Source: a virus. Taken from it: a stretch of 64,000 nt of DNA. A program made the position numbers and the translations under genes. Shown in pieces: positions 11,022-64,000 of this stretch. Each line of letters begins with the position of its first letter. Positions within the stretch are counted from its first letter, which is position 1. The stretch covers positions 4,409 through 68,408 of IMG/VR virus record IMGVR_UViG_3300021467_000093, one strand, 5' to 3'. The notes beneath the pieces were generated by a model, which searched no databases, was not told the DNA's origin, and saw only the letters and a program-made list of their open reading frames with translations.

Positions 11022-11476
11022 TGAAAGTTCTTTCTTTAGATGTGTCTTCTGTATCTACTGGCTGGGCTTTGATAAATGAAGATGCTAAATTATTACATTT
11101 TGGTACTATATCTATACCGAATTTAGATGTTATGGCAAAATTGTATTGGTTTCATAATTATTTAGAATCTTTGATATTTACTTTAGAGCCAGATATAATA
11201 TTAGTAGAAGAGACATATTTAAAGAACGTTAAAACATTAAAAACCCTATCACAATTTATAGGGATGGTAAATTTTTTAGTGTTTAAGCACCATAAACCCG
11301 CTGTCTATTTGAATCCTAATGCTGTTAGAGCATTTTTTAAATTACGAACTAAAGCAGATGTTTTTGATTTTGTGAAGAATAAGTATAAGAGTAAGTTGAA
11401 AGAATTAACATTTAATAATGGCAATGATATAACAGACGCTATACTACAAGCGTTATACTATATTGAAAATAATTGA
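11021..11476 (+). CDS. ruvC: RuvC-like Holliday junction resolvase
   Basis: VLSLDVSSVSTGWA, LVEE, DITDAI catalytic pattern. Confidence 0.8.
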   Translation: MKVLSLDVSSVSTGWALINEDAKLLHFGTISIPNLDVMAKLYWFHNYLESLIFTLEPDIILVEETYLKNVKTLKTLSQFIGMVNFLVFKHHKPAVYLNPNAVRAFFKLRTKADVFDFVKNKYKSKLKELTFNNGNDITDAILQALYYIENN

Positions 11477-11485
11477 GGTGATAAG

Positions 11486-18425: not shown

Positions 18426-18443
18426 CGTTTAAAAATTATTAAG

Positions 18444-18472
18444 TTTACAATTATAGATTTTTATGTTATAAT
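18444..18472 (+). promoter_or_regulatory. sigma70-type promoter
   Basis: TTTACA-N17-TATAAT, extended TG. Confidence 0.8.
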
Positions 18473-25658: not shown

Positions 25659-26150
25659 ATGAATGAAATAAAACAAATAAAATTAATAGTTTCGGAAATA
25701 GATGGTGTTCTAACTGACGGCACTTATGCTGAAGATGAGTTAGGAAATGTATTATATAAACACTTTCAAGGCAAAGATTTTGATGCTATAAATATTTTAA
25801 AAAAAGATTACAAAGTCGTATTTTTGTCTGAGGATAATCGTATTAATTATAATATGTGCCGTAGAAGAAACTTACCATTTTATTGGGGTAAGAACACAGA
25901 TGAAAAATATGATAGATTAGTGGAAATATTGAGACGATATAATTGTACTCCGGAAGAGGTGGTTTTTATAGCATCCAAATTAAGTGATTTAAAATGTTGT
26001 CAGTTAATACCAAAATCATTATGTCCAGCTGATGCCGGAGAGTATTTAATGTCTAAGTGTTGGGCTGAATTTAAAACGAATGGCGGAAAAGGAATTTTTG
26101 TTGAGTTATTATATCTATTAACTACATTAAAAAATTTACATATTGAATAA
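25659..26150 (+). CDS. KdsC-like HAD phosphatase homolog with altered catalytic motifs
   Basis: LIVSEIDGVLTDG (canonical DxDGVLTDG), GGKGIFVE C-terminus. Confidence 0.75.
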   Translation: MNEIKQIKLIVSEIDGVLTDGTYAEDELGNVLYKHFQGKDFDAINILKKDYKVVFLSEDNRINYNMCRRRNLPFYWGKNTDEKYDRLVEILRRYNCTPEEVVFIASKLSDLKCCQLIPKSLCPADAGEYLMSKCWAEFKTNGGKGIFVELLYLLTTLKNLHIE

Positions 26151-26163
26151 TTTGTGTTATAAT
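26135..26163 (+). promoter_or_regulatory. sigma70-type promoter
   Basis: TTTACA-N17-TATAAT, extended TG. Confidence 0.8.
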
Positions 26164-26180
26164 ACCATTGGGGTGAGCTT

Positions 26181-29463: not shown

Positions 29464-30750
29464 ATGGCAAAATGTTTGACTATTGACGTAATTAGAGAAT
29501 CATTTTTAAAAGAGGGGTATGAGTTATTAACTAAAGTATACGTTAATAGTTTGCAAAAATTAGTTTATAGATGTCCAAATGGACATATTCATTATGTAAG
29601 TTGGCGCCATTGGCGGCATTCAAATCAACGTTGCCCATATTGTAAAGGACGTGATAAGTATTTTTATAGTAAAGTTAAAAAAATATTTAAAAAACATGGC
29701 TATCAATTATTAGAGTCTAATTATGAGAATAAATTGACAAGAATGAAATGTATTTGTCCTAACGGACATGTCATATATAAATCACTAGATTCTTTATTAC
29801 GTGGCTATAAATGCTATAAATGTGTAAAAAACGAGAGATTGTCGATTGATTTTATAAAAAAAGAGTTTGCTAAGGAGGGTTATACTTTATTAACAACGGA
29901 ATATAAAAATAATAAACAGAAGTTACGTTATCGGTGTCCATTAGGTCATGAGGGGGTTATTAGGTTTGATAGTTGGAGGTCTGGTCGAAGGTGTGGTAAA
30001 TGTAAAAGTTTAAAATTATCTGAGCGCATGAGTTTGGACAAGCATTGGAATTGGAAAGGAGGGCTGTCTTTTGAGCCTTATTGTTCGTTGTGGACCAATA
30101 AGGAGTTTAAGGAAGCGATAAAGGAGCGCGATAATTATAAATGTATGAACCCATACTGCACGCATAAATGTACTAAATTAGTTATTCATCATATTGATTA
30201 TAATAAACAAAACTGTAATCCATATAATTTAATTACTTTATGCGTGTCGTGCAATTCAAGAGTTAATTATAATCGAGATTATTATAAACAATTGTTTATA
30301 AAAATTATGGAGGGTAATTATATGGAAGTATTAATTAAAAAATTACATGAAGATGCTAAAATTCCAATATATGCAACTGAAGGTTCTGCAGGATTAGATT
30401 TATATGCTATTGAAAATTATACATTACGACCAGGAGATGTAAAATGTATAAGAAGTGGTATCGCTGTTGCACCTCCGAATGGTTACTACTTTGAAATATT
30501 TTCTAGAAGTAGTTTGGCGTGTAAGAAGCAATGTATAATTTTAAATAGTGTTCCTATAATAGATGAAGATTTTAGAGGTGAGTTACTAATATACATGAAA
30601 AATATTAGTAATAATGTCGTTACTATAAAAAAAGGCGATAGATATGCACAGATGATTCTTAAGAAAAAAATACTTGTTGTTTTTAAGGAAGTTGATGAAT
30701 TACCCAAAACTGATAGAGGAGCTGGTGGATTTGGATCGACTGGAAATTAA
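29464..30750 (+). CDS. dut: Zinc-ribbon-repeat HNH endonuclease in frame with dUTPase (dUTPase has its own SD/ATG at 30322)
   Basis: Three CPxGH repeats and HHIDYNK..NLITLCVSCN, then SAGLDL, RSS, IDEDFRGE, RGAGGFGSTG. Confidence 0.88.
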   Translation: MAKCLTIDVIRESFLKEGYELLTKVYVNSLQKLVYRCPNGHIHYVSWRHWRHSNQRCPYCKGRDKYFYSKVKKIFKKHGYQLLESNYENKLTRMKCICPNGHVIYKSLDSLLRGYKCYKCVKNERLSIDFIKKEFAKEGYTLLTTEYKNNKQKLRYRCPLGHEGVIRFDSWRSGRRCGKCKSLKLSERMSLDKHWNWKGGLSFEPYCSLWTNKEFKEAIKERDNYKCMNPYCTHKCTKLVIHHIDYNKQNCNPYNLITLCVSCNSRVNYNRDYYKQLFIKIMEGNYMEVLIKKLHEDAKIPIYATEGSAGLDLYAIENYTLRPGDVKCIRSGIAVAPPNGYYFEIFSRSSLACKKQCIILNSVPIIDEDFRGELLIYMKNISNNVVTIKKGDRYAQMILKKKILVVFKEVDELPKTDRGAGGFGSTGN

Positions 30751-35641: not shown

Positions 35642-36193
35642 ATGCTTAATAATAAACTTTTGCCTCGTCGACAAGTGTATTCTACTAAGTATAAAAAGAG
35701 TGTTAAAACTAAGGAGGAGTTTGTTAAGAAGTTTAATTACTATTTATTAAAAAAATATGCGCGTGTAGAATTACGTATTCCTAATACTAATATTTTCAAT
35801 TATGATTTGTCAAAGAAAATTTCATATGATTTAGTTTTGATAGGGAAGTATAAACGAAAGAAAAATAATATAAATGAATGTATTTTAGCTAATATTATAT
35901 TAAAATTTATTAATAAGCCCAATTTTAATAAGTCTACTGAATTAAGAATAGATGCAACGGAATTAGATAGGTTATCAACTGTTCCACTTACATTTTTAAT
36001 TTTGATTAATCATGATAATGTTTATTTGTTAAATGTGAAACATATAAATAAATATAAAATATTAGATAATGGATATGCTATTTTAGCCCGTAGAGAAAAT
36101 TATAAAGCTAAATGGCCATTATATGTTAAATGTGGCTGGAAGAAAGTTTTTTCTGAAATGGAAAAAATTATAAAAAAATCAAATTTTTTGTAA
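35642..36193 (+). CDS. Hypothetical basic protein
   Basis: 183 aa ORF with SD aaggag. Confidence 0.65.
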   Translation: MLNNKLLPRRQVYSTKYKKSVKTKEEFVKKFNYYLLKKYARVELRIPNTNIFNYDLSKKISYDLVLIGKYKRKKNNINECILANIILKFINKPNFNKSTELRIDATELDRLSTVPLTFLILINHDNVYLLNVKHINKYKILDNGYAILARRENYKAKWPLYVKCGWKKVFSEMEKIIKKSNFL

Positions 36194-36200
36194 AAAAAGG

Positions 36201-36229
36201 TTTACAAAATTAAAAAAATATTTTATAAT
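36201..36229 (+). promoter_or_regulatory. sigma70-type promoter
   Basis: TTTACA-N17-TATAAT. Confidence 0.75.
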
Positions 36230-36238
36230 ATAAGTGAT

Positions 36239-36265
36239 GGGGTTAGTGTTTTATACACTAACCCC
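36239..36265 (+). other. Perfect 11-bp hairpin directly after the promoter (5' stabiliser, attenuator or terminator)
   Basis: GGGGTTAGTGT-TTTAT-ACACTAACCCC followed by TTTAT. Confidence 0.6.
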
Positions 36266-36291: not shown

Positions 36292-36804
36292 ATGACTAGC
36301 GAGTTCGATTTTTATCAAATTACACCTGGAGAGCTTGGAAAAGATTGGGAATTTCAAGGCGACCAAGTACATATGAATAGGGCGCCTTCAGATAAAATAT
36401 CCAATTCAGAATATTATTTTGTGGGCAGCCGTATGGCTGTAGATAGAACTAAAGTAGTTTTTGGGTATGATAGGAAAGAGAATCCTGAAAGAGAAATTAA
36501 TGATGGATTTTTAGGTTTTGGCGTAGATTGGTCTCTTTTTAATTACAATCCATACGGTGGACGTGGAGACGGGAAAAATCCTAATTTCAGAGTTCTTAAT
36601 GATTGGTTACAAATTACAGGTCTTGGCAACCTCAATGTTGAGACACGAGATGTTATGGACAGGAAAGAAGTAGATGCTTCTGGAATGATGAAGTACTATA
36701 ACTATCCTACTGAAGGGTATAGTTCATTTGGTAAGAAAACTGGTGGAGCCTCTGGCGATAAACGTTGGAAATGGCAAGGTAATACTTGGGTTCCCGGCGA
36801 CTAA
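36292..36804 (+). CDS. Hypothetical protein
   Basis: 170 aa, strong SD gaggaggg, own promoter. Confidence 0.75.
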   Translation: MTSEFDFYQITPGELGKDWEFQGDQVHMNRAPSDKISNSEYYFVGSRMAVDRTKVVFGYDRKENPEREINDGFLGFGVDWSLFNYNPYGGRGDGKNPNFRVLNDWLQITGLGNLNVETRDVMDRKEVDASGMMKYYNYPTEGYSSFGKKTGGASGDKRWKWQGNTWVPGD

Positions 36805-36822
36805 TTAAATAGAATAAAATAG

Positions 36823-36851
36823 TTTACAAAAATTAATTTTTATGTTATAAT
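36823..36851 (+). promoter_or_regulatory. sigma70-type promoter
   Basis: TTTACA-N17-TATAAT, extended TG. Confidence 0.8.
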
Positions 36852-36871
36852 ATAGACAGGAGGCTCGTATA

Positions 36872-39947: not shown

Positions 39948-40709
39948 ATGCTAGACAAACTTATATTTTTGAAGACACCGTCTGATCTACGTAATTTAGA
40001 ATACGTAAATAGATTATCCAATGAGTTTTTTGAATATTGTGCGGAAAATCTTTGTGTTGGTGTATCTAAATTAGAAATAGAAGAGTGGTTTATACATTTT
40101 TGTGAAAAGTATAATGTTAAGTCTGCATTTTTTAATTATAAGGGTTTTCCTAATCAATTATGTATTAGTGTAAACAATGAAATAATACACGGAACGGTTT
40201 CTGATTATTGTTTAAAAGATGGCGATATTATAACACTCGATGTTGGATTAGATTATAATGGATTTATAAGTGATAATGCTAATACATTTATGATAGGAAA
40301 TTGTTTTTCGAAAGCTTCTGAATTAATAAAACATACTTATGAAGCTCTATATAAAGCTATAGAAAATTTATATCCATTTAAACGCGTGTCTTCAATATCT
40401 GAAACGATTTATAATGTTGCTATACAAAATAATATAAAAGTATTACAAAATTTTGGAGGGCATGGAGTAGGTTATTTTTTACATGAAAAGCCAAGCATTC
40501 CAAATATACCTTTAAAAGTTGGTATCGATTGGCGCTTAAGACCGGGTATGGTTATTGCAATTGAACCAATTTTTTTATTAGACAATTCAAAAATTGAATT
40601 TATGGATAATGGTTGGACACTTATATCCGATGATTTAAGTGCCCACGTTGAACGTTCAGTAGCCATTTTGACTAATGGTTATAAAATATTAAGCGAGGAG
40701 GAAATATAA
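39948..40709 (+). CDS. map: Methionine aminopeptidase type I
   Basis: CISVNNEIIHG, LDVG, SDNA, GHGVG...HEKP, IAIEP, SAHVE. Confidence 0.92.
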   Translation: MLDKLIFLKTPSDLRNLEYVNRLSNEFFEYCAENLCVGVSKLEIEEWFIHFCEKYNVKSAFFNYKGFPNQLCISVNNEIIHGTVSDYCLKDGDIITLDVGLDYNGFISDNANTFMIGNCFSKASELIKHTYEALYKAIENLYPFKRVSSISETIYNVAIQNNIKVLQNFGGHGVGYFLHEKPSIPNIPLKVGIDWRLRPGMVIAIEPIFLLDNSKIEFMDNGWTLISDDLSAHVERSVAILTNGYKILSEEEI

Positions 40710-40710
40710 T

Positions 40711-41205
40711 ATGAAGAATGCGCATGATAAATTTATGGAGGATTTGTCCAAGTCTCTATTGAAAGCTAAAGCAGCTATTGAAGAAGCAGACATCATAGTA
40801 GCATCAATTGAAGAGGAAGAGCTGTGTGATGAAAATTATGAAATAGCAAAAATTTGTGGTAGCAAGACACTACCAATAGATGATAGGGCAGAGTGGGATG
40901 GCGATGCTGCCCGTGCTAGAATAGCTAAATGGGCTGGTGGGCCAGATAAAGACAAAATTAATTGGAAAAAATACGGTAAAGGTTTTGTTTGGGTAACGCC
41001 TGGCCAAGAAGAAAAATTTGGTGGGTATAAATTACCGTTTGCAGATGTTATAAATGGTGAATTGAAAGCTACTTGGGGTGGTGTAAGCAACGCTATGAAA
41101 GCAGTCAGGGGAGCTAGGAAAAAGCTAGTTGGTGTAGATGTTAAAAAAGCCTATAACTTTTTGGCTGCTTATTATAAAAAATTCAAAAAAGAAGTACCTA
41201 AATAA
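40711..41205 (+). CDS. Hypothetical protein; domain resembles modules appended to phage head-maturation proteins
   Basis: WDGDAARARI...YKLPFADVINGEL...LAAYYKKF, recalled pattern. Confidence 0.5.
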   Translation: MKNAHDKFMEDLSKSLLKAKAAIEEADIIVASIEEEELCDENYEIAKICGSKTLPIDDRAEWDGDAARARIAKWAGGPDKDKINWKKYGKGFVWVTPGQEEKFGGYKLPFADVINGELKATWGGVSNAMKAVRGARKKLVGVDVKKAYNFLAAYYKKFKKEVPK

Positions 41206-41227
41206 AATAAGGAAAGGAGTGAAGATA

Positions 41228-41659
41228 ATGGGCCTTAAAGAAGCAATAGCTAAGGTAAATGAAGCCATTAAAAATGCTGATGATGTAGCCAAAAAACTTA
41301 CTACGAAAGAACGAAAGAAATTAAAAAAATCAGTTTTTTGTGGGCCTAATAAATCATTTCCTGTACCTGATTGTAAACACGTAGCTGTAGCAAAAGCTTA
41401 TTTGAATAGATCTAAGTTTTCTAAAGCTACTAAACAAAAAATAGCTGCTTGTATAAACAGACGCGCAAAACAATTAGGTTGTAGTACAACAAAACCAGCT
41501 AAAGCTAAAGGAGAGCTAGAACATGCTTTTGATGCTTTGCCAGATGATTTGAGGGTACTAGCTGATAGCTCTATTTTTAAAAGTACTAAAGAATTAGTAG
41601 ATAAGTCCTTAGATAATGCAGGACTGCATTTAGATTTTAATTGTACTGAGTGTGATTAA
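41228..41659 (+). CDS. DUF6582-like small basic domain protein
   Basis: LTTKERKKL..SVFCGP..SFPVPDCKHV..A, recalled pattern. Confidence 0.5.
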   Translation: MGLKEAIAKVNEAIKNADDVAKKLTTKERKKLKKSVFCGPNKSFPVPDCKHVAVAKAYLNRSKFSKATKQKIAACINRRAKQLGCSTTKPAKAKGELEHAFDALPDDLRVLADSSIFKSTKELVDKSLDNAGLHLDFNCTECD

Positions 41660-41672
41660 TATGGAGGTAACC

Positions 41673-42116
41673 ATGGTTTGTGGTGATGAATTAGCTGGAA
41701 TATTATTTAATGCAGTTCAATCAGGTGTTTTAGTAATTGATGCTATGACTAAAACAATAATCGATGTAAACCCGGCCGCTATGTTTCTTATTGGGCAGCA
41801 ATATGATGATATAATAGGTAATCAGTGTGACCTAGTATTATGTAAAAACTGCGATTTGTTTTGTAAATATAGTGCTATTGATGATGGGCCGGCACTTAAG
41901 GAAATTAAAATTGAAAGAGATGATGGTAGCATTAAATATGCAGAATTTGCAGTTGTTAGCCGTTTTTATAAAGAAAAACATATTTATATAGTCACTCTTA
42001 TCGATATAACTGAGAAAAAAGAAGCCGAACTAGCTCTTCATGAGGTATGGAATGAAGCTAAACAAGTGTTGATTAAAAATTTAGATAATCTAAAGACAAA
42101 GGCGACGATAGAGTAA
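41673..42116 (+). CDS. Stand-alone PAS-domain protein
   Basis: GVLVID...IIDVNPAA...IG...DIIG...IDITEKKEAE. Confidence 0.8.
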   Translation: MVCGDELAGILFNAVQSGVLVIDAMTKTIIDVNPAAMFLIGQQYDDIIGNQCDLVLCKNCDLFCKYSAIDDGPALKEIKIERDDGSIKYAEFAVVSRFYKEKHIYIVTLIDITEKKEAELALHEVWNEAKQVLIKNLDNLKTKATIE

Positions 42117-42117
42117 A

Positions 42118-42615
42118 ATGACTACAAATAATAAAAATGGTATAAGTACAGCAAATTTATTATTTGAAGCAACACAGTATTTTGTTAATAATTTAAATGC
42201 TGGTCTAAATAAATTAGAAGATCAGTATAAAAAAATTGATAATAAAATAAATACTCCGCCGCGTACTGAGGAATTGTATGAGCGTCAGGGCAATATGACT
42301 GAGAAACTGGATGCAGTTATATCATTACTATCATCACTTAAGAATACATTTAAAAGTACGTTGTTATATATAAAAATATTTGCTACAGCAATTTCAATAG
42401 CGATAATTGTTGGCGGAATTATAATTTATTACGGTAACCAAAAAACTAGCATGGCTAAAATAGAAACTAGGATTGAAGAGCGTATGAATAAACAAATTGA
42501 AAAGCATTTCGATGAATTTAATAAACAGTTTTACGATTTCAGAATTACAATTGAAAGACGTTTAGACCGATTGGAAAAGAGCCGTAATAATGGAATTACA
42601 AATGAACGAAGATAA
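42118..42615 (+). CDS. Single-pass membrane coiled-coil protein
   Basis: Hydrophobic IFATAISIAIIVGGIIIYY segment flanked by coiled coils. Confidence 0.65.
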   Translation: MTTNNKNGISTANLLFEATQYFVNNLNAGLNKLEDQYKKIDNKINTPPRTEELYERQGNMTEKLDAVISLLSSLKNTFKSTLLYIKIFATAISIAIIVGGIIIYYGNQKTSMAKIETRIEERMNKQIEKHFDEFNKQFYDFRITIERRLDRLEKSRNNGITNERR

Positions 42616-42823
42616 CATTACTTACTTGGACTGCAAATGGTATATGGGGGACGGTCAATGTAAAATGCCGTCGATCAATGGGGGATTTTCTGCGTGTATA
42701 TCTTTAAATAAATTAGATCCATTTTGTGCGTGGTTAATACCATTTTTAAATACCGAAAGTAATAATAACAATGATGATGTTGAGTTACCGACGAGTTTTA
42801 AATTAGATAATGGTGCTTATTAG
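42590..42823 (+). CDS. Small Cys-containing hypothetical protein
   Basis: 77 aa ORF; start uncertain. Confidence 0.55.
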   Translation: MELQMNEDNITYLDCKWYMGDGQCKMPSINGGFSACISLNKLDPFCAWLIPFLNTESNNNNDDVELPTSFKLDNGAY

Positions 42824-42850
42824 GTCGCTTGATAGCGCATGAATTGAAAC
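42824..42850 (+). CRISPR. Solitary shortened type I-C-like CRISPR repeat
   Basis: GTCGCTTGATAGCGCATGAATTGAAAC: same GTCG start and TGAATTGAAAC end as the array repeat; CGCT/AGCG stem. Confidence 0.7.
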
Positions 42851-42875
42851 AAAAAACAAACGCCTATGAACTTAT

Positions 42876-42931
42876 GCACTAATTGACATAAATTATAACT
42901 GTTTTTAAGTGTCGATTAGTGCTATTTTTTT
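42876..42931 (+). terminator. Intrinsic terminator-like hairpin
   Basis: GCACTAATTGACA / TGTCGATTAGTGC stem followed by a T-run. Confidence 0.65.
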
Positions 42932-42942
42932 CAAAAAAAATG

Positions 42943-42971
42943 TTTACAATATTGAAAATATATTCCATAAT
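42943..42971 (+). promoter_or_regulatory. sigma70-type promoter for the prkA unit
   Basis: TTTACA-N17-CATAAT. Confidence 0.65.
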
Positions 42972-43007
42972 ATATATAGAGAATTACATTAGTTTGGAGG
43001 TGGCAGA

Positions 43008-43325
43008 ATGCCAGAAATTACAAAAAATTATATTCGAATACCAGTTAAACGAAAACGAAAATCTAATGAATTAAGAACTATAACTTTAGGAAAAGGAATT
43101 AAGGCACTATACGATGTTAAACGCAAAATAATAGTTACCTACCTGTTTGATAAAACAAAATATACAATGAAAGAGGCAAAGGAGTGGGTTAAAAAACATA
43201 GTAATAATGCAACATTGGAATTGGTTGCTAAAAATTTGATATTGGCAAATGAGTTACATTTGTCATTAGAGAATATAAAAGAGGAAGTTTTTAATAGAAT
43301 AAATGAAAAAGGAGAAGATCTATGA
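43008..43325 (+). CDS. Hypothetical protein
   Basis: 105 aa with SD ggagg; YLFDK..YTMKEAKEWVKKH resembles a small module found in phage proteins. Confidence 0.6.
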   Translation: MPEITKNYIRIPVKRKRKSNELRTITLGKGIKALYDVKRKIIVTYLFDKTKYTMKEAKEWVKKHSNNATLELVAKNLILANELHLSLENIKEEVFNRINEKGEDL

Positions 43326-45268
43326 ACTTTGAAGAAATCATAGCCAAGCAAAAAGAGGAGCAAAAATTTGAAAATTGGGAAGGTACTTTAATTGATTATC
43401 TAGAACTAGTTAAAAGTAATCCTAAAATTGCTACATTTGCGCCTGGTCGAATCTATAATTTGATTATTAATAAAGGAGTTGAAGAAGTCGACGAATCGTT
43501 AAAATTGCGAGGTTATGAAGATTTAGTCAAATATAAATTTTTTGACGGAAAAATATTTGGCGCATTAGAACCTATTCATGATATAATGAAATTTTTAAAA
43601 GCAGCTGCTAGGCGTACTGAGACTGGTAAACGTATTTTAATTTTAGTCGGTCCTGTTAGTAGTGGTAAATCTACAATAGCTGCATTATTGAAAAGAGGTT
43701 TGGAAAATGATCCGATCCCAAAATACGCTATTAAAGGATGCCCAGTACATGAAGAACCACTTCATGCTATACCACTGAGCGATAGAGAATTTTGGGAAGA
43801 GCAGTTAAATGTTAAAATAGAAGGAGTATTGTGTCCAGTATGTCAATATAGATTAGATACAGAGTTCACTAAAGATGGTATTGCTAATTGGGATAAATTA
43901 CCTGTAGAACGTATTAGATTTTCTGAACAAAAGAGAGTTGGTATTGGTACTTTTCAACCATCAGATCCAAAAAGCCAAGATGTAACAGAATTGATTGGTA
44001 GAGTAAATATGGCTAAAGTAGCACGATATGGAGAAACAGACCCGCGTGCATTTTCGTTTGATGGAGAACTTCAGGTTGCCAATGGCGGATTAATTGAAAT
44101 GGTTGAATTATTAAAAACAGATATTAAGTTACAATATGTCTTAATATCATTGGCACAAGAACAAGTTATCAAGTCGCCTGGTTTTCCACAAATGTATATA
44201 GACACTCTTGTGATTGCTCATACCAATATGACTGAATTTGATATTTTTAAAGCTGATAAGAAAAATGAGGCTCTCCATGATAGAATGTATCCTGTATTTG
44301 TTCCTTGGAATTTGAGAGTTGACGATGAGATCAAGATTTATGAAAAAATGATCAGAGAGTCTGATTTTAGAGATATACATATTGCTCCATATACATTAAA
44401 AATAGCAGCACAGTTTGCAGTATTAACAAGATTAGTTGATTCTGCAAAAGTTTCAAATAAAATTGAAAAAATGAAACTGTATAATGGGGAAATATCAGAA
44501 GGATTTAAAAAGACTGATATTGATATTAAAGAATTGCGCCAAGAAGGTAGAGATAAAGGTGAAGGATTGAAAGGTATTTCACCTCGATTTATTATAAATG
44601 CATTGAATGTAGCATTAGGAGCGAAAGAAGATAAGAAATGTGTGAATCCTATTGATATAATAAGAGCCTTAAGAGATAATTTTAAACATCATATAGGAAT
44701 AAATGAAGAAGAAATAGATCATTATTTGAATTTATTAATTGGCGACAAAGATTCAGTGAGTGCTGAATACAAAGAGATAGCTAAAAAAGAAGTTAATATG
44801 GCCTTTTTATATGCTTATGATGATCAAGCTAATGCACTTTTTGAGAACTATATGAAAAATATTTCAGCTTATTGTTTAAAAGAAAAAGTGTACGACTCTG
44901 TAACTGGGGAGTATTCAGATCCTGATGAAAAATTGATGAGATCATTAGAAGAGTTGATTCCAGTACCTGAAAATTCAAAATCGGAGTTTAGAAATGGTGT
45001 ATTTGTATATAAATCGCATGCATTAGAGCAAGGAAAGCAATTTAAATATACTGATTACCCGCCATTACAAGAGGCTATAGAGAAGAAACTGATGGCAGAT
45101 TTAAAACCTATGGTAAGTTTGTCGTTAGCAGATAAATCCGTAACTAATCCTAAAGCTAAAAAACGTAGAGAAAAAGCATTGCAGACATTATTAGAAAAAG
45201 GTTATTGTGAAGAATGTGCAAATGTTTTATTGGCTTTTGTCGGTGAAATATTACGTAAGGAAGAATAA
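43322..45268 (+). CDS. prkA: PrkA/YeaG AAA+ ATPase/serine kinase
   Basis: WEGTLIDYL, KRILILVGPVSSGKST, CPVHEEPL, GTFQPSDPKSQD, EALHDR, GISPRF. Confidence 0.95.
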   Translation: MNFEEIIAKQKEEQKFENWEGTLIDYLELVKSNPKIATFAPGRIYNLIINKGVEEVDESLKLRGYEDLVKYKFFDGKIFGALEPIHDIMKFLKAAARRTETGKRILILVGPVSSGKSTIAALLKRGLENDPIPKYAIKGCPVHEEPLHAIPLSDREFWEEQLNVKIEGVLCPVCQYRLDTEFTKDGIANWDKLPVERIRFSEQKRVGIGTFQPSDPKSQDVTELIGRVNMAKVARYGETDPRAFSFDGELQVANGGLIEMVELLKTDIKLQYVLISLAQEQVIKSPGFPQMYIDTLVIAHTNMTEFDIFKADKKNEALHDRMYPVFVPWNLRVDDEIKIYEKMIRESDFRDIHIAPYTLKIAAQFAVLTRLVDSAKVSNKIEKMKLYNGEISEGFKKTDIDIKELRQEGRDKGEGLKGISPRFIINALNVALGAKEDKKCVNPIDIIRALRDNFKHHIGINEEEIDHYLNLLIGDKDSVSAEYKEIAKKEVNMAFLYAYDDQANALFENYMKNISAYCLKEKVYDSVTGEYSDPDEKLMRSLEELIPVPENSKSEFRNGVFVYKSHALEQGKQFKYTDYPPLQEAIEKKLMADLKPMVSLSLADKSVTNPKAKKRREKALQTLLEKGYCEECANVLLAFVGEILRKEE

Positions 45269-45288
45269 TTCTATGAATGGAGGTAAAT

Positions 45289-45459
45289 ATGTTTGAAGAT
45301 ATTTTAGGACATGAATATAAGGAATGCTCTCAAAAAGATGAGATACTACGATATCCAAAGTCATGTCCATACTGTGGAGCATCAGATATTGGATTGGGAT
45401 CTGTGGATGGGCATACAACTTATTTTTTTTGTGCTAAATGTGGTTATACTTGGGAGTAA
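45289..45459 (+). CDS. Small zinc-ribbon protein
   Basis: MFEDIL...CPYCG...CAKCGYTW. Confidence 0.6.
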   Translation: MFEDILGHEYKECSQKDEILRYPKSCPYCGASDIGLGSVDGHTTYFFCAKCGYTWE

Positions 45460-45464
45460 TTCTA

Positions 45465-45656
45465 ATGTTTGATGATATTTTATCTACAACCAATGATAAA
45501 GACAAGTTAGAGCATTCTGATGTTGAGAATAGTGATTTTGTTTATGCTTACAGTTGTCCAATTTGTGGTTCTGTTAATCTTACTATACACACATTTGGCA
45601 ACGGTAAAGTAACTTTGTACTGCGTTAACTGTAATTTTCTATGGAATAGTGACTGA
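45465..45656 (+). CDS. Small zinc-ribbon protein, paralog of the preceding ORF
   Basis: MFDDIL...CPICG...CVNCNFLW. Confidence 0.6.
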   Translation: MFDDILSTTNDKDKLEHSDVENSDFVYAYSCPICGSVNLTIHTFGNGKVTLYCVNCNFLWNSD

Positions 45657-45689
45657 CAAATATTTAATGAGGACTCCCTTGATTTAATA

Positions 45690-45768
45690 GTTACACTTGA
45701 TAGTGCATGAATTGAAACAGAAGATTGATAAATTTATAGGTCGCGCTTAATAACATATGAATTGAAAC
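45690..45768 (+). CRISPR. Degenerate two-repeat mini-array with a 21-nt spacer
   Basis: GTTACACTTGATAGTGCATGAATTGAAAC (45690-45718), spacer AGAAGATTGATAAATTTATAG, GTCGCGCTTAATAACATATGAATTGAAAC (45740-45768). Confidence 0.75.
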
Positions 45769-45779
45769 ATGGAGGCTCT

Positions 45780-48398
45780 ATGACTATAATTTATCATCCC
45801 GATTGGGATATGTCAGAAAAAGGAAAGAAAGATGTAGAACGTCATCATAAAAAGATAGATGACGCTATTCGTAAAAGTGTAAAAGATGTAATAGCAGAAG
45901 AATCAATAATTACTAAGAAAAAAGGCAAAAAAGTTAGGATTCCAGTCCGTGGACTGAAAGATTATAAATTTATACATGGAGAAAAGGGCAAGGGAAAGGG
46001 AAAAGGGGATAAAAGTGAAGGAGAAGGAGAAAGTGAGGGAATTGGACAGGGCAAAGGTAAGCCTGGTGATATTATAGGCCGTAGACCAAAACAAGGCCCC
46101 GGTAAAGGTGGAGAAGGCAAACCTGGAGATAAACCAGGAGAAGATTACATTGAAGCAGAAATTGATATTGATTATTTAATTGAAATAATGTTTGAAGACT
46201 TGGGGTTACCTTGGATACAAGAAAAAACGAAAGCTCAGCAATTAGTTCCTAGTGGTTGGAAATTTGAAACAGTATCTAAGGTTGGTATTTTACCACGTTT
46301 ACATAAAAAACGTACTATTTTAGAAGCTATTAAAAGAAACGAGTTATATGCTCGTGAAATTGTAGAAGAATTGAAATGTGGTTATGAATTAGCCCTTAAA
46401 GCACTAGTTCAGGCTAATGGAGATATAGATGATGCAATTCAATTAATTAAAAATAACGAAGTAAATGAAGATGTTGATCCATATATTATTATTGAGGATG
46501 AAGATTTACGTTACAAACAAATAGAGCAAGATTTTGAATTACATTCTAATGCTGTAGTTATTGCAGCAATGGATACCAGCGGGTCGATGACCACGGATAA
46601 AAAATACTTATGTCGTTCATTATTATTTTGGTTAGTAGAATTTTTAAAGAAAGTTTATGATTATGTAGATATAAAATTTATAGTACATACTACTGAAGCT
46701 AAATTAGTAGACGAAGATACGTTTTTTTATAAAGGTGAATGTCATACTGATAATCACTATATTTTAATGCATGATGGTAGTATTAAAGACATAAAAGATA
46801 TAATTATTGGGGACAAGGTGGTTTCTATCAATAAGTTTGGTGAAAAGGAAATAAAACCAGTTACTAGAGTATATTCTAGAGAGGTCGAAGATTTATTAGA
46901 AATAGATTTAGTAGGCGCTGGTAAATTAAAATGTACTCCTCAACACAGATATTTTGTTTTTAACATAGATAATGGAAATATATATGAGAAAAAAGCTGTG
47001 AATATTGATATAAACAAAGAATACTTATTAATGCCCAACATTAACTTATTTGAAGATGATGATGAAATTGATGAAATGAATTATGTTATTGGATTTATAT
47101 TTGGTGACGGGTATGTAAAAGATAGAAGCATCAACATTACTGATAAAGATGTACGCAATTTAGAATATTTAAAATCTATATTAGACAGGTTTAATATTAG
47201 TAATAATATAATTTGTGGTGACAGGAATAGATTATGGATCTATAGTAAAAAATTTTGTGATTATATACGTACTAATTATAGCGGTTGTTGTGAATTGTCA
47301 CCAAAGAGATATATAAATAATAATATTAGTAAATTAGGCAATAAAAATTTAGCTTTATTTTTAAGTGGTTTGTTTGATGCTGAAGGACATGTAGGTGAAA
47401 AATCAATTCAACTGACAATGTCTAGTAAAAAAATTATTAAGCAAATATATAATTTATTATTAAGGTTTGGTATAGTATCGTCATATACATATCAAAAACC
47501 GAGCTATAAATCATTTGGATGTGTCGATGGTAAAATTTATCATAAATTACAGATACAGGGTGATAATTTAATAAAATTTAATAAGTTAATTGGATTTAGG
47601 TCTAAGCAAAAAAATGAAGCATTAGAGTTGTTGTGTAATAATAGATCTAAGACATCAACTAAAACTAGGTCACCGGTAGTATTATTTGATAAACATATAA
47701 GAGACTATATAAATTATACAACAACTAAATTAGATGGCTATAATTTTTTTAAATATGTACCACATAGATATTTTAATACTAAGATCTTACCAAGAAAATA
47801 TGTTGAAAGATTATTAAATGATTTTAAATTTATTGATGATGATAATTTTGTTAGTGCTTATAGCAATTCATTTAATCTAGTAAAAATAAATTCTATAGAA
47901 CCTATAAAAGATAAAACTAAGGTGTATGACTTAACAATTAAAGATAATAGTTCGTATATAATTGATGGGGTATATAGCCATAATTCTGGAGGAACGTTTT
48001 GTTGGACAGCAATAGACAAGGCTATATATTTAATTGAAACTGAATATCCAGTTGAAGAGTGGAATGTTTATTGTGTATATGTAAGCGATGGTGATGACTT
48101 TGATCCACAGAAAACTGTACGTTATATAGATGAACTAATGAAAAAAAGAATAAATATGTTCGCATATACAGAGGTTAAACCGCAATATTCTTCAATAAAT
48201 CATACTATTAATTTAATGTGGGGGTCTCAGAATACATTAATTAATACTATTAAGAAAAAATGGAAGTTTAATTGTAGAGTTGAAGACGGGGCAGAGTTTT
48301 GTAGAAATGATAATTTGCATATGATTTTATCTACTATTAGAAATAAAAACCATGTATATCCAACTTTAAAACATATTTTGTTTGAGAAAGTAAAGTAA
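45780..48398 (+). CDS. yeaH: YeaH/YhbH (DUF444, vWA-like) protein containing an intein
   Basis: DVERHHKKI, GIGQGKG, FEDLGLP, DLRYK, MDTSGSM, YVSDGD; SD GGAGG before the ATG at 45780. Confidence 0.9.
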   Translation: MTIIYHPDWDMSEKGKKDVERHHKKIDDAIRKSVKDVIAEESIITKKKGKKVRIPVRGLKDYKFIHGEKGKGKGKGDKSEGEGESEGIGQGKGKPGDIIGRRPKQGPGKGGEGKPGDKPGEDYIEAEIDIDYLIEIMFEDLGLPWIQEKTKAQQLVPSGWKFETVSKVGILPRLHKKRTILEAIKRNELYAREIVEELKCGYELALKALVQANGDIDDAIQLIKNNEVNEDVDPYIIIEDEDLRYKQIEQDFELHSNAVVIAAMDTSGSMTTDKKYLCRSLLFWLVEFLKKVYDYVDIKFIVHTTEAKLVDEDTFFYKGECHTDNHYILMHDGSIKDIKDIIIGDKVVSINKFGEKEIKPVTRVYSREVEDLLEIDLVGAGKLKCTPQHRYFVFNIDNGNIYEKKAVNIDINKEYLLMPNINLFEDDDEIDEMNYVIGFIFGDGYVKDRSINITDKDVRNLEYLKSILDRFNISNNIICGDRNRLWIYSKKFCDYIRTNYSGCCELSPKRYINNNISKLGNKNLALFLSGLFDAEGHVGEKSIQLTMSSKKIIKQIYNLLLRFGIVSSYTYQKPSYKSFGCVDGKIYHKLQIQGDNLIKFNKLIGFRSKQKNEALELLCNNRSKTSTKTRSPVVLFDKHIRDYINYTTTKLDGYNFFKYVPHRYFNTKILPRKYVERLLNDFKFIDDDNFVSAYSNSFNLVKINSIEPIKDKTKVYDLTIKDNSSYIIDGVYSHNSGGTFCWTAIDKAIYLIETEYPVEEWNVYCVYVSDGDDFDPQKTVRYIDELMKKRINMFAYTEVKPQYSSINHTINLMWGSQNTLINTIKKKWKFNCRVEDGAEFCRNDNLHMILSTIRNKNHVYPTLKHILFEKVK
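46740..47984 (+). mobile_element. Intein with LAGLIDADG endonuclease (415 aa) in YeaH
   Basis: YKGE|CHTDNH...CTPQH...IGFIFGDG...LSGLFDAEG...VYDL...YSHN|SGGT. Confidence 0.92.
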
Positions 48399-49633
48399 TG
48401 GCACAAAAATTTACATATAATTATGTAAAAACTTATATAGAAGCGAATGGCTATAAATTACTAAGTACCGCATATATTAATACCCACACTAAATTATTAA
48501 TACAGTGTGAAAAGGAGCATATTTATAAACAATGTTTTAACGTCTTTAAAAAAGGACATAGATGTCCAATATGTGCTAGAAATTCTAGATATAATTATAA
48601 TGAGGTAAAGAAGTATTTTAAAAAATATAACCACATTATTATATCTGGCAAATACACTAATATACATAGCAAGTTATTAGTCAAGTGCACATGTGGGAAT
48701 ATTTATGTAACTACGTTTAATAAATTTAAAAATAGAAAAAACAAATGCCCTGCATGTAATGATTATTTTGTAACTACTAAAAAAGTTAGACAACATCTTA
48801 AACAATATGGACATATCTTACTTTCTGTCTATAAAGGTGCTAAACATAAACTAAAAATTAGATGTACTAACGGCCATATTTATTATAAAACATGGAACAG
48901 TATAAAAGCTGGGCAATTATGCCCTATTTGCAATAGGCAAAAGAAATTATCTATAAATTATATAAAAAATCAAATGTTAAGAGAGGGTTATTGTTTAATA
49001 ACTAGAGATTATATTAATAATAGAAGTATGTTGGAAGTTAAATGTCCTAATGGACATATTTATACTACATGTTGGAATTATTGGCAACAAGGAAATCGAT
49101 GTCCTATATGTGCAGGAAATACAAAATATTCTCAAGAAGAATTAATCGCATATTTTAAACATTATGGTTATACATTGCTAAGTCCTTATAAAAATAATAA
49201 AACTAAATTAACGTTGTTATGTCCTAATAACCATAAATTTAAGATGACATTAAACAATTTTATGTGCGGACAACGTTGTCCGATTTGTATGAGATGGAGG
49301 TCTAAGTATGAGTTAGAATTAGAAAGTATTTTAAAGTCGTGGGGAATTGATTTTAGATCTAACGATAAAAGTATATTAAAAAATCCATACACTGGTAGGC
49401 CGTTAGAGTTAGATTTTTACATACCGACGCTTAAAAAAGCTATTGAGTTTAACGGTAAATATTGGCATAATTTAGCCAAAATACAAAAAAGAGATATTAT
49501 AAAAATGGAAGTCTGTGTTAGTAATAATGTAGAACTATTTGTTATTAATGAGGATGAGTGGCTCAGCAACAAAGTTAAAATTATTAAACAATTAAAACAA
49601 TTTCTAAATGTAAACTCTTCAATAAACAATTAA
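48398..49633 (+). CDS. Zinc-ribbon-repeat Vsr/DUF559-like homing endonuclease
   Basis: Five repeats plus ELDFYIP..KKAIEFNGKYWH. Confidence 0.82.
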   Translation: MAQKFTYNYVKTYIEANGYKLLSTAYINTHTKLLIQCEKEHIYKQCFNVFKKGHRCPICARNSRYNYNEVKKYFKKYNHIIISGKYTNIHSKLLVKCTCGNIYVTTFNKFKNRKNKCPACNDYFVTTKKVRQHLKQYGHILLSVYKGAKHKLKIRCTNGHIYYKTWNSIKAGQLCPICNRQKKLSINYIKNQMLREGYCLITRDYINNRSMLEVKCPNGHIYTTCWNYWQQGNRCPICAGNTKYSQEELIAYFKHYGYTLLSPYKNNKTKLTLLCPNNHKFKMTLNNFMCGQRCPICMRWRSKYELELESILKSWGIDFRSNDKSILKNPYTGRPLELDFYIPTLKKAIEFNGKYWHNLAKIQKRDIIKMEVCVSNNVELFVINEDEWLSNKVKIIKQLKQFLNVNSSINN

Positions 49634-52162: not shown

Positions 52163-52191
52163 TTAACAAAAGTGAGAATTTGTGTTATAAT
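52163..52191 (+). promoter_or_regulatory. sigma70-type promoter
   Basis: TTAACA-N17-TATAAT, extended TG. Confidence 0.8.
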
Positions 52192-52229
52192 ATAGTAAAG
52201 AATTTGGACATTAGGAAAGGAGACGGACT

Positions 52230-58459: not shown

Positions 58460-58588
58460 ATGAAATATATAATTGCTATATTGTTGAGTATTGTATTATT
58501 TACAGCTATTACGATTTATAATTCCAAATCAACCGAATTACCTCTTCCTACTATAATTAAATACTTGTCAGTTCAAAAAAAGGTTTAA
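58460..58588 (+). CDS. 42-aa signal/TM peptide (absent from the ORF track)
   Basis: SD ggagg; MKYIIAILLSIVLFTAITIY... Confidence 0.45.
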   Translation: MKYIIAILLSIVLFTAITIYNSKSTELPLPTIIKYLSVQKKV

Positions 58589-58612
58589 ATTTTTAAAGTT
58601 TTGTGTTATAAT
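58584..58612 (+). promoter_or_regulatory. sigma70-type promoter (leaderless position before the ATG at 58617)
   Basis: TTTAAA-N17-TATAAT with extended TG. Confidence 0.7.
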
Positions 58613-58616
58613 ACAT

Positions 58617-58862
58617 ATGAAAAGAGGAAATGCTATAACAACTAAACATTGGTTGGTCGTTGTATTACTTACTTTTTTAGTTACATCAGGATTCTCCTTT
58701 TATAGTCTGTTTAAAGATACTGGAGATGGATATTCAATATTAATCGTTCCAAATGTTGGGGAGCATATTGAGATTGATTATTATGGCCAAGCAATTATAT
58801 ATAGACCTAGAGGGTTTGGAATGAAAAGCCCAAGAACATTAGATGGCGGGATGGGGGAATAA
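58617..58862 (+). CDS. Small membrane/secreted protein
   Basis: N-terminal hydrophobic segment. Confidence 0.55.
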   Translation: MKRGNAITTKHWLVVVLLTFLVTSGFSFYSLFKDTGDGYSILIVPNVGEHIEIDYYGQAIIYRPRGFGMKSPRTLDGGMGE

Positions 58863-61938: not shown

Positions 61939-63633
61939 ATGAGAATCATTGATCAATATTGGGAATGGGTTCAAAGACCAAATTCGCCGCTCCTGATAAT
62001 AGAGCGGGCTGGAAGAACTTGTTATAAATCAGAAGATAAAATAACAAATGATTCAGCTCAGAAATTTGTTAAAGCAATTATTAAACGTGGCCATGAATCC
62101 GTAATTGAACATGCTGTAGCATCTATTCGTTTTATTACAAATAGAGGTTGTTGTTATGATGATAAAACTGAGGTTTTAACAAAAAATGGCTGGAAATTTT
62201 TCAAAGATATAACTTATAATGATGAATTAGCATGTTTAAATAATGAAGATTATCTAGAATATCATAAACCATTACAAATAATTAAAAAAGAGTGGGATGG
62301 CTATTTATTACATTTTGAATCACGTTTAATTGATCTTTTAGTTACTCCGAATCATAATATGTGGGTTTTTGATTATGATAAAAGATCACCAAAGACACGT
62401 ATTTGGAAATTTTTAAAAGCGGAAGACTTAAAAAATAATAGATATAAATTCAAAAAAAATGCTAAATGGAAAGGAAGAGTCCAGTCTATAACAATTCCAC
62501 AACATCCAACTAAATATAAAAGATTTCCAATAATTAAGTATGATCCACAACAAACAGCAGATTTATTTGAGTTATTAGGATATTGGGTAACTGATGGTTC
62601 ATATAAATATGGGAAAAATAATGGAAGTGGTAATTCAATAATTATTACACAAAGCAAACAAATACATATAAATAGAATAAAAAATTTATGTGAACATCTT
62701 AATTTACAATATTATTATAATAATAAAACTAATTATATAAGAATAGACAATTTACGATTAGTACGTTATTTTGAATCGCTTATTGGTAAAGGTGCTAAAA
62801 CCTTTACAATTAAAGTGCCTGAACTAATAAAAGAGGCAGTACCATGGCAAATAAAACGATTTTTAGACGGTGTTATAGGTGGAGATGGTAATATACACAA
62901 AACTAATAAACATATTGTAATTTATACAGCGTCTAAAAATTTTGCAGATGATTTACAAGAATTATTTTTAAAAATTGGATTATCAGCTAACATACGAACA
63001 GAATTACCTAGAGCAACAACTCATGTGATATTTACAAAATATGGTAATGCTGAAATTAAGCACAAAAGTATTATGTATATTGTATCAGTGTATCATAATA
63101 AAAGATCTGCACATTTATTAAATAAACATACGGCATATAATTTTGCGACAAAAAAGTATTATAAAGGATATGTATATTGTGTAACTGTACCATATCATAA
63201 ATTATATGTAAGACGTAATGGTAAAGTGGTTTGGTGTGGAAATTCTCATGAATTAGTTCGTCATAGATTGGCATCCTATTCACAAGAAAGTACCCGTTAT
63301 GTAGCATATAAAGATGAAATGGAATTTATACGTCCAGTATGGTGGGATAAATGGAGCGTAGAAGAACAGCAATTATGGCTGAATACATTACAAATTATTG
63401 AAAAAAATTATCAAACACTATTGCAAATAGGATGTCATCAAGAAAAAGCACGAGAAATATTACCTAATAGTTTAAAAACTGAAATAGTAGTAACTGCTAA
63501 TCTTAGGGAATGGCGACATATTTTTAAATTGAGATGTTCAAAAGCCGCACATCCACAGATTAGAGCATTAATGTTAGATTGTTTAGAAGGATTTAAAAAA
63601 GAAATTCCAATTATTTTTGATGATTTATTATAA
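61939..63633 (+). CDS. thyX: Flavin-dependent thymidylate synthase containing an intein
   Basis: GHESVIEH, SHELVRHR..SYSQESTRY, AREILP, NLREWRH, AAHPQIR. Confidence 0.96.
   Translation: MRIIDQYWEWVQRPNSPLLIIERAGRTCYKSEDKITNDSAQKFVKAIIKRGHESVIEHAVASIRFITNRGCCYDDKTEVLTKNGWKFFKDITYNDELACLNNEDYLEYHKPLQIIKKEWDGYLLHFESRLIDLLVTPNHNMWVFDYDKRSPKTRIWKFLKAEDLKNNRYKFKKNAKWKGRVQSITIPQHPTKYKRFPIIKYDPQQTADLFELLGYWVTDGSYKYGKNNGSGNSIIITQSKQIHINRIKNLCEHLNLQYYYNNKTNYIRIDNLRLVRYFESLIGKGAKTFTIKVPELIKEAVPWQIKRFLDGVIGGDGNIHKTNKHIVIYTASKNFADDLQELFLKIGLSANIRTELPRATTHVIFTKYGNAEIKHKSIMYIVSVYHNKRSAHLLNKHTAYNFATKKYYKGYVYCVTVPYHKLYVRRNGKVVWCGNSHELVRHRLASYSQESTRYVAYKDEMEFIRPVWWDKWSVEEQQLWLNTLQIIEKNYQTLLQIGCHQEKAREILPNSLKTEIVVTANLREWRHIFKLRCSKAAHPQIRALMLDCLEGFKKEIPIIFDDLL
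62152..63243 (+). mobile_element. Intein with LAGLIDADG endonuclease (364 aa) in ThyX
   Basis: NRGC|CYDDKTEVLT...VTPNH...LGYWVTDG...IGGDG...VYC...WCGN|SHELVRHR. Confidence 0.92.
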
Positions 63634-63799
63634 TCGTACTTAATAGTGCGTGAATTGAAACATTTTATGTATTGAAGATATTGAAGGAGAGGCTTGCCGC
63701 GCCCCATGCGGGCGCGTGAATTGAAACTATTCCTTGTTGTCGGATGGCCTTGAGGTTTTCTCCGTCGCGCCCCGTACAGGGGCGCGTGAATAATGAAAA
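63633..63799 (+). CRISPR. Type I-C-like CRISPR mini-array: 3 divergent repeats, 2 spacers (34 and 36 nt)
   Basis: R1 ATCGTACTTAATAGTGCGTGAATTGAAAC (63633-63661); R2 GCCGCGCCCCATGCGGGCGCGTGAATTGAAAC (63696-63727, 32 nt); R3 GTCGCGCCCCGTACAGGGGCGCGTGAAT... (from 63764). Confidence 0.9.
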
Positions 63800-63804
63800 T
63801 AATA

Positions 63805-63833
63805 TTTATAAATTTATAATTTTGTGTTATAAT
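63805..63833 (+). promoter_or_regulatory. sigma70-type promoter for the cas3-like gene
   Basis: TTTATA-N17-TATAAT with extended TG. Confidence 0.7.
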
Positions 63834-63850
63834 ACTATGAAGGAATAGCT

Positions 63851-64000
63851 ATGGAATTACAACAAGCATATGCGCATAAAAAATTAGTAAATGATAACAT
63901 TGTGTATCAACCATTATTGGATCATTTACTAGGCACAGCCAAAATAGCAGAGGCTTGTTATTATCATATAGCGGGTAATTGGGGGTATGTTGCTGGGCTA
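63851..64000 (+). CDS. cas3: Cas3 HD-nuclease N-terminus (truncated by the window; absent from the ORF track)
   Basis: MELQQAYAHKK...YQPLLDHLLGTAKIA...WGYVAGL matches the YAH..QxLxxHL..AGLxHD start of Cas3; lies next to I-C repeats. The HD residues would fall just past the edge. Confidence 0.75.
   Translation, partial: MELQQAYAHKKLVNDNIVYQPLLDHLLGTAKIAEACYYHIAGNWGYVAGL

Follow-up and report, generated by a model that had tools for sequence, protein, structure and literature searches.

A terminator-capped type I-C-like repeat unit in a very large phage: a candidate RNA anti-CRISPR

Described viral repeat elements and the present locus

The Racr, Cracr and mini-array classes of viral element are already established, and the unit analyzed in the present work adds a member to this set, with the proviso that the type I-C examples in the supplementary lists of the Cracr study might include a similar unit. 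Racrs are RNA anti-CRISPRs derived from solitary repeat units of viruses, and they include RacrIC1, which in the available text lies 11 nt behind a homologue of acrIC5 and forms a bicistronic RNA with it (Camara-Wilpert et al., Nature 2023, PMC10651486). Cracrs are viral crRNA-like regulatory RNAs; the portions of the preprint available here define them by a match of at least 9 PAM-proximal nucleotides at a PAM-flanked site in a cas or creT promoter, and describe CracrVA1 as one psi-repeat with a psi-spacer behind it and a rho-independent terminator at the end (Liu et al., bioRxiv 10.1101/2024.10.29.618823). Viral mini-arrays and the partial CRISPR-Cas loci of phages are treated in the sections of a review on which we draw (PMC11656645).

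The unit lies in the window, by which is meant the whole stretch of DNA that was analyzed, 64 kb of a 68.4-kb linear IMG/VR virus record. CheckV estimates the completeness at 24%, and the window is therefore a fragment of a very large phage. Its G+C content is 28-35% and its GC skew is positive along the whole length, and the long ORFs listed for 38-48 kb are all on the + strand. The eight runs that hold window DNA are hydrothermal-vent and marine metagenomes, none of which is on record as RNA; the metagenome runs were compared as contigs only, in which transcript ends are not visible. Two metagenome contigs of the same phage (the sister contigs L196 and L197) extend the comparison, while GenBank phages gave no DNA match to positions 40001-48000.

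Like RacrIC1 and the Racrs described in the same available text, the unit at 42824 is a solitary phage mimic of a type I-C repeat which has no working cas genes beside it, directly follows a small protein gene and probably shares a transcript with that gene; it has the position by which Racrs are recognized, that of a solitary viral repeat outside a cas locus. It differs from RacrIC1, as described there, in that its stem is weaker than the canonical one, the upstream ORF belongs to no known family, copies of the repeat are dispersed in one genome and no promoter was found for it. Racrs are further recognized by strong expression and by a promoter within about 250 bp upstream; the search for a dedicated promoter of the 42824 unit yielded only weak matches (9/12 to the consensus) at 42522-42591, inside the ORF.

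The resemblance to Racrs or crRNA-like RNAs that had been proposed for the locus held for the layout of repeat, short unpaired segment and terminator, which is that of CracrVA1, but guide function is left without a target match. The combination of a psi-repeat, a short psi-spacer and a further repeat or terminator, by which Cracrs are recognized in layout, is found both at 42824 and at 45690-45768, where the order of psi-repeat, psi-spacer and psi-repeat is that of the type I form, and the segments at the two sites (25 and 22 nt) are shorter than normal spacers. Unlike the Cracrs in the available text, neither site has a known PAM-proximal promoter match of at least 9 nt, and the form with a single repeat and a terminator is described there for type V-A and not for I-C. 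The array at 63633-63800 resembles the viral mini-arrays of the review sections cited above in having 2-3 spacers and GC-rich repeats nearly identical to cellular I-C repeats (its second repeat, R2, is 1 nt off those of four loci), and differs from them in that its first repeat is AT-rich, it adjoins the remnant of a deletion, cas3'::'cas7, and no protospacer was found for it in related phages.

Features of the window discussed in the text (coordinates are window positions)
Feature	Coordinates	Strand	Remarks
Small ORF, 77 aa	42590..42823	+	TAG stop at 42821-42823, directly 5' of repeat
Solitary AT-rich type I-C psi-repeat, 27 nt	42824..42850	+	GTCGCTTGATAGCGCATGAATTGAAAC; GTCGC 5' end, UGAU loop
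Handle, 11 nt	42840..42850	+	TGAATTGAAAC; part predicted to remain after Cas5c cut at 3' stem base
Spacer-like segment, 25 nt (psi-spacer candidate)	42851..42875	+	AAAAAACAAACGCCTATGAACTTAT; unpaired in fold
Intrinsic terminator	42876..42931	+	14-bp hairpin 42876-42922, then U-run TATTTTTTT 42923-42931
Promoter-like site of next operon	42943..42971	+	TTTACA, 17 nt, CATAAT; phage's repeated promoter family; kept in L126
Second AT-rich psi-repeat	45690..45718	+	4-bp stem, exact handle
Spacer-like segment between two psi-repeats, 21-22 nt	45719..45739	+	
Third AT-rich psi-repeat	45740..45768	+	stem lost (0 kcal/mol), handle exact
Type I-C mini-array	63633..63800	+	directly after stop codon
Mini-array R1, AT-rich	63633-63661	+	then 33-34-nt spacer
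Mini-array R2, GC-rich	63696-63727	+	GCCGCGCCCCATGCGGGCGCGTGAATTGAAAC; then 36-nt spacer
Mini-array R3, GC-rich, terminal	from 63764	+	degenerate handle/3' end
5' part of in-frame cas3'::'cas7 fusion gene P0001 (248 aa)	63851..64000	+	cut by window end; continues in L196 703-1446
Promoter-like repeat family, copies	1556-1618, 18442-18472, 26126-26165, 36182-36241, 36804-36866	+	repeat search
Promoter-like repeat family, further copies	42924-42983, 52163-52206, 58565-58627, 63796-63835	+	repeat search
Zinc-ribbon module regions	4577-5113, 13652-15623, 29503-29949, 48449-49234		

The solitary unit and the identity of its repeat

The original prediction placed a repeat directly after a TAG stop, a 25-nt guide-like segment behind it and a 13-bp terminator hairpin at the end. 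The first two elements were found where they had been placed, and the hairpin and its U-run were confirmed as well, but the hairpin counts 14 pairs (one G.U) in the centroid fold rather than 13; it is followed by UAUUUUUUU. The 92-nt RNA spanning 42840-42931 has a folding energy of -18.6 kcal/mol (z = -4.1), a value reached by 0 of 200 shuffled sequences, and leaves both the handle and the 25-mer unpaired. A consensus terminator scan missed the hairpin because its loop is longer than 8 nt. The further claim that the repeat is solitary is right locally, the nearest copy being 2.8 kb away and the repeat being unique in the window at up to 3 mismatches, and wrong for the window as a whole, which holds four AT-rich copies and GC-rich array repeats. 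The hairpin of the repeat itself is weak (5 pairs and a bulge, with a 4-nt loop, at -4.2 kcal/mol and z = -0.5; 48 of 200 shuffles match or beat it), and because an unpaired A replaces the stem-base G, its cutting by Cas5c is uncertain.

The small ORF in front of the repeat, which gene callers begin at Met 42602 to give 73 aa, is an ORFan whose sole match is its own cluster (P0002); it has no Pfam or PHROG family and no relative in IMG/VR, and its AlphaFold2 model (pLDDT 45) is unusable. It is a possible co-transcribed partner of the repeat, and read-through transcription from the operon into the unit seems likely. The nearest upstream member of the phage's own promoter family is the copy at 36804-36866. 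Members of this promoter-like repeat family (TTTACA, a spacing of about 17 nt, TGTGTTATAAT) mark the starts of operons on the + strand. Another promoter-like site, at 45762-45790 (11/12 matches), was dropped, since transcription from it would start inside the next ORF.

Rfam has no family for the repeat. At the gathering score the window gave a tmRNA only, and at E <= 10 the regions 42700-43000 and 63500-63850 gave only sub-threshold matches. The tmRNA is encoded by the phage at 51174-51540 (RF00023, 105 bits; no ARAGORN call). A scan of IMG/VR, which perhaps omits the window's own record, found no exact match to the degenerate AT-rich repeat pattern.

Judged by its sequence, the repeat at 42824 is a diverged, AT-rich type I-C CRISPR repeat, which bears out its prediction as a CRISPR repeat and assigns it to a type through the handle that it shares with I-C arrays. 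The handle TGAATTGAAAC is identical to the 3' ends of the I-C array repeats in every array-bearing locus fetched (27 distinct consensus repeats), a match that rests on these fetched arrays. The 3' 18 nt of the phage's GC-rich repeat occur in arrays of at least 120 bacterial or archaeal genome stretches, its GC-rich 32-mer (R2) is 1 nt from the consensus repeat of four fetched loci, and in at least 18 of the fetched array loci there is a Cas7 gene whose product shares 38-51% identity with the I-C Cas7 part found in the phage.

In the available part of the source (PMC8524198), a type I-C repeat is described as a 7-bp stem with a 5-nt loop, flanked by overhangs of 2 nt on the 5' side and 11 nt on the 3' side. 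The cut by Cas5c falls behind nucleotide 21, where the stem ends on its 3' side, and leaves an 11-nt handle; recognition by Cas5c reportedly depends mainly on the cut site and on the 5' handle downstream of it, and not on the loop or the 5' region of the repeat. The 42824 copy has the 11-nt 3' overhang and departs from the rule for the 5' overhang, stem and loop, a rule that the phage's GC-rich repeats follow with energies of -14.6 to -18.8 kcal/mol. A handle that is fixed while the stem has drifted matches what Cas5c reportedly recognizes. The predicted release, by cleavage at the stem base, of a discrete RNA made of handle, guide and hairpin is consistent with the 11-nt handle left by Cas5c in the same partial source. 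Single handle-like motifs (GGATTGAAAT or GGATTGAAAC) also stand among the cas genes, outside the arrays, of three I-C cas loci (L210, L213 and L221), where they may be CreR-like psi-repeats of the hosts.

Further copies, the mini-array and the cas remnant

The handle 11-mer occurs five times in the window, always on the + strand, compared to a mean of 0.13 copies in 100 shuffled sequences, none of which reached five. A repeat search grouped the four AT-rich copies (at 42824, 45690-45718, 45740-45768 and 63633-63661) into one family (D13), and the sequence beyond the last of them showed the GC-rich array repeats. Every copy reads with the coding strand and occupies a non-coding gap; a stop codon directly precedes two of them, and the one at 45740-45768 abuts the ribosome-binding site and the ATG (45780) of a DUF444/YhbH-like gene. 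That gene occupies 45780-48398 and is interrupted by an intein with a LAGLIDADG homing endonuclease. Searches for the handle with 1 mismatch gave two more sites, both of them coding and neither with repeat-like flanks.

The handle is conserved differently from the rest of the repeat: across the four AT-rich copies, 11 of the 11 handle columns are invariant compared to 6 of the 18 upstream columns (P = 3.6e-4), a statistic that carries an ascertainment bias in that the copies were found partly by way of the handle. The stems of these copies range from 6 bp at 63633 (-6.2 kcal/mol, z = -2.2) to none at 45740, and at one stem position the copies switch from G-C to A-T on both sides.

The mini-array has its counterpart in a sister contig, L196 (419-650), which has one repeat-spacer more, with a 35-nt spacer, and therefore 3 spacers compared to 2; the array thus varies between samples. 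The difference of one repeat-spacer suggests recent turnover of the array. Because the same genome holds a real mini-array of type I-C, variable between sisters and with spacers of normal length, I-C RNAs would appear to matter, or to have mattered recently, to the phage.

Behind the array, and behind the member of the phage's promoter family at 63796-63835, the gene P0001 begins. Its full form was recovered by protein search, and the gene is open over its whole length at 34% G+C. Residues 55-236 of the product are type I-C Cas7/Csd2 (TIGR02589, positions 87-272 of 284; 201 bits against a cut-off of 182), without the conserved N-terminal block of full-length I-C Cas7, and over the first 50-52 residues or so the identity to the N-terminus of P0003, a protein of 714 aa, is 76% (phmmer, E = 1e-16). 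The latter is an intact Cas3 encoded on a 36-kb contig, with HD, Cas3_HD, DEAD and Cas3 C-terminal domains in Pfam. P0001 is read as an in-frame cas3'::'cas7 fusion because a Cas3-like N-terminus is joined in it to a partial Cas7, and by its sequence it is the product expected if a deletion had run from cas3 through cas5 and cas8c into the start of cas7. Sequence searches of Pfam, NCBIfam and the PDB with its first 50 residues gave nothing or spurious pentatricopeptide-repeat (PPR) matches, which were rejected, and an Atlas search with the N-terminus gave a sub-0.9 lead only. Neither P0001 nor P0003 was found in IMG/VR, and the Cas3_HD family is absent from 5 related phage records. In the sister contigs, the ORFs downstream of P0001 turn to the other strand.

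No working effector module lies near the solitary unit. No Cas5d or Csd1 (cas5, cas8c) and no further Cas7 family member was found in the 68-kb record, which covers about a quarter of the genome; a working effector may lie elsewhere.

Related phages were gathered with the PrkA-type protein kinase encoded just downstream of the unit (gene at 43322-45268), whose homologues are common among related large phages and which yielded 70 loci with PrkA identities of 28-90%; the 42824 unit is not conserved across phages among them. In the closest relative (L126, PrkA 90% identical) the flanking genes and the promoter are kept, while the homologous site lacks both the 77-aa ORF and the repeat, and the two repeats before the YhbH-like gene are absent as well. 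Because they are absent from the homologous sites of relatives, the repeat units are, as far as this comparison of sequences indicates, recent and lineage-specific. L126 is also the only one of the 70 loci with an I-C-like repeat, which stands elsewhere, at about 11414-11446, inside the tmRNA gene (11278-11529). This gene is shortened to 252 nt, compared to 367 nt, about 115 nt of the pseudoknot region having been replaced by the repeat or deleted beside it; the stem of the repeat is decayed and its handle is exactly TGAATTGAAAC. In each of three vent-metagenome runs (X1, X6 and X7) one contig matches the window over 42351-42848 only, at no less than 80% identity, and differs on both sides. 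The right-hand break, at 42848, is 2 nt before the end of the repeat, and a second genomic context of the ORF and repeat therefore exists.

Targets and competing explanations

Targets were sought for five spacer-like segments, namely the 25-mer, the 22-mer and the three array spacers. In the window, L196 and L197, searched with a limit of 5-11 mismatches that varied by guide, each segment matched only itself, and none has a TTC-flanked seed with extension in 120 I-C array loci or 73 phage sequences. The match to the 25-mer next to a TTC PAM that the original prediction had led one to expect did not appear at 9 nt or more in the loci scanned: the window, the two sister contigs and 70 phage loci hold no such match, and the 120 I-C array loci hold none of at least 9 nt with extension. 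The best contiguous TTC-flanked match to the 25-mer is at most 9 nt, with at most 14/25 identities, in 764 kb of array loci and 934 kb of phage loci. The scan of 23 I-C cas loci (200 kb), a weak test of guide function, gave 0 TTC-flanked 9-nt seeds for the 25-mer, compared to a mean of 0.065 for shuffled guides, and no 9-nt seed for the 22-mer. GenBank phages gave only chance-level matches (E >= 0.4; E = 4 for the 25-mer), the mini-array spacers have no protospacer in related phages, and none of the spacers of the fetched arrays matches the phage. A likeness of the 22-mer to the promoter of the remnant at 63799 (17/22) was dropped, since the site has no TTC PAM and the mismatches include seed positions 2, 5 and 9; it is further weakened by three other matches with 5 mismatches. 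Comparison of Cas7 proteins singled out no host phylum: identity does not exceed 36% among 401 Campylobacterota genomes or 54% among 401 from the phylum to which a Clostridiales MAG belongs, and the best value in the I-C array loci is about 51%.

The reading that we favour, and to which we give about as much credence as to its negation, is that the 42824 unit is a phage-encoded mimic of the type I-C repeat, an RNA anti-CRISPR of the Racr or Cracr kind which would engage the Cas5c and Cas7 of the host. The operon closed by the 42876-42931 terminator would probably carry the unit at the 3' end of its transcript. Host Cas5c would then bind the invariant handle and the cut-site region of this RNA and would probably cut it before U42840, releasing an RNA of about 92 nt that consists of the handle, the 25 nt and the terminator hairpin. 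Cas7 subunits would line up on the released RNA, which would compete with the crRNAs of the host and thereby lock Cas5c and Cas7 in complexes that are not aimed at the phage. The RNA is taken to act on host proteins alone because the 68-kb record lacks cas5 and cas8c and has only the broken cas3'::'cas7. We infer transcription, cutting, protein binding and the effect on immunity from the sequence.

Nested within the repeat-mimic reading is the unlikely case that the RNA is a crRNA-like regulator with a true guide, whose 25 nt would pair by their PAM-proximal end with a site next to TTC in a cas or creT promoter of the host, so that host Cascade would be turned into a repressor of its own immunity genes. 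The arrangement of psi-repeat, unpaired 25 nt and terminator has the form of CracrVA1, and the 45690-45768 site, with 22 nt between psi-repeats, points the same way, as do the length of the segment, which falls within the 17-27 nt given in the available text for type I-F psi-spacers (viral Cracr, host CreA/CreR) and below the 33-36 nt of the phage's own mini-array, and the type I-C Cracr arrays reported there (bioRxiv 10.1101/2024.10.29.618823); the contigs of three runs that keep 42351-42848 and differ beyond the repeat are a further point on this side. A guide is opposed by the absence of TTC-flanked seeds of at least 9 nt from the 23 I-C cas loci, by the short contiguous matches in the array and phage loci and the chance-level matches in GenBank phages, and by the 12 nt at the start of the 25-mer, which are A-rich and of low complexity. 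A Racr-like decoy that uses no guide fits the data at least as well. Quite improbable is a more elaborate version of mimicry, in which the handle-bearing RNAs in a 3' UTR, a 5' leader, the mini-array and the tmRNA of the sister phage would act together with the cas3'::'cas7 protein in a combined RNA and protein mimicry against type I-C. The fusion product, which lacks the conserved N-terminal third of Cas7, would in that case co-assemble with host Cas7 as a chain-poisoning subunit, and the 42824 unit and its ORFan partner would form one module of the whole.

The main rival to an RNA anti-CRISPR is that the unit has no function: the lineage would once have had a full I-C locus with an array adapted to high A+T content, recombination would have scattered copies of its repeat, and the 42824 copy would be a leftover that happens to stand before an ordinary terminator. 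We consider this possible, if rather doubtful. The cas locus is visibly decayed, P0001 having retained about 52 residues of Cas3 and positions 87-272 of Cas7; further points for a relic are a stemless AT-rich copy, the weak stem at 42824, the absence of the unit from the closest relative and the lack of a target for any of the five segments. Decay is harder to reconcile with a handle that stayed the same in every copy as the upstream part drifted, with the confinement of the copies to the coding strand outside ORFs, with the tmRNA copy in L126, whose stem is decayed and whose handle is exact, and with a mini-array that differs by one repeat-spacer between sister contigs. Uses other than mimicry, apart from the relic, are improbable. 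Among these, it is very improbable that the repeats are signals of the phage's own, either for Cas5c-type cuts in polycistronic mRNAs (one such cut would fall just ahead of the YhbH-like gene and its ribosome-binding site) or for crossing over with CRISPR arrays. The 45740 copy does adjoin the next gene's ribosome-binding site and start codon, two copies stand exactly at gene ends, and the homology of the second context ends inside the repeat, at 42848; but the 68-kb record has no Cas5 gene, the sites are not kept in relatives that share the same genes, and a signal gives no reason for a 25-nt tail capped by a terminator.

If the unit is active as a repeat mimic, the small set of RNA anti-CRISPRs would gain a type I-C example from a very large vent phage that is uncultured, in a form (one psi-repeat with a short tail and a terminator, cut from a 3' UTR) that the available literature text does not describe for type I. 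The copies, with their fixed handle and free stem, amount to a natural mutational scan, which suggests that the contact between Cas5c and the handle is the essential part. Together with the remnant, the strain-variable mini-array would record a phage that lost its effector and kept the RNAs, which bears on the origin of viral solitary repeats. If the unit is a relic, it is an ordinary by-product of the decay of a cas locus.

Beyond the YhbH-like gene, a zinc-ribbon gene at 48398-49633 matches the CapR, DUF4379 and Vsr-like endonuclease families. It belongs to several genes that together carry at least 12 copies of a zinc-ribbon module of about 60 aa (CPNGH...W...W), and because of the matches of this one gene, the genes with the module are read as probably encoding homing or nicking endonucleases.
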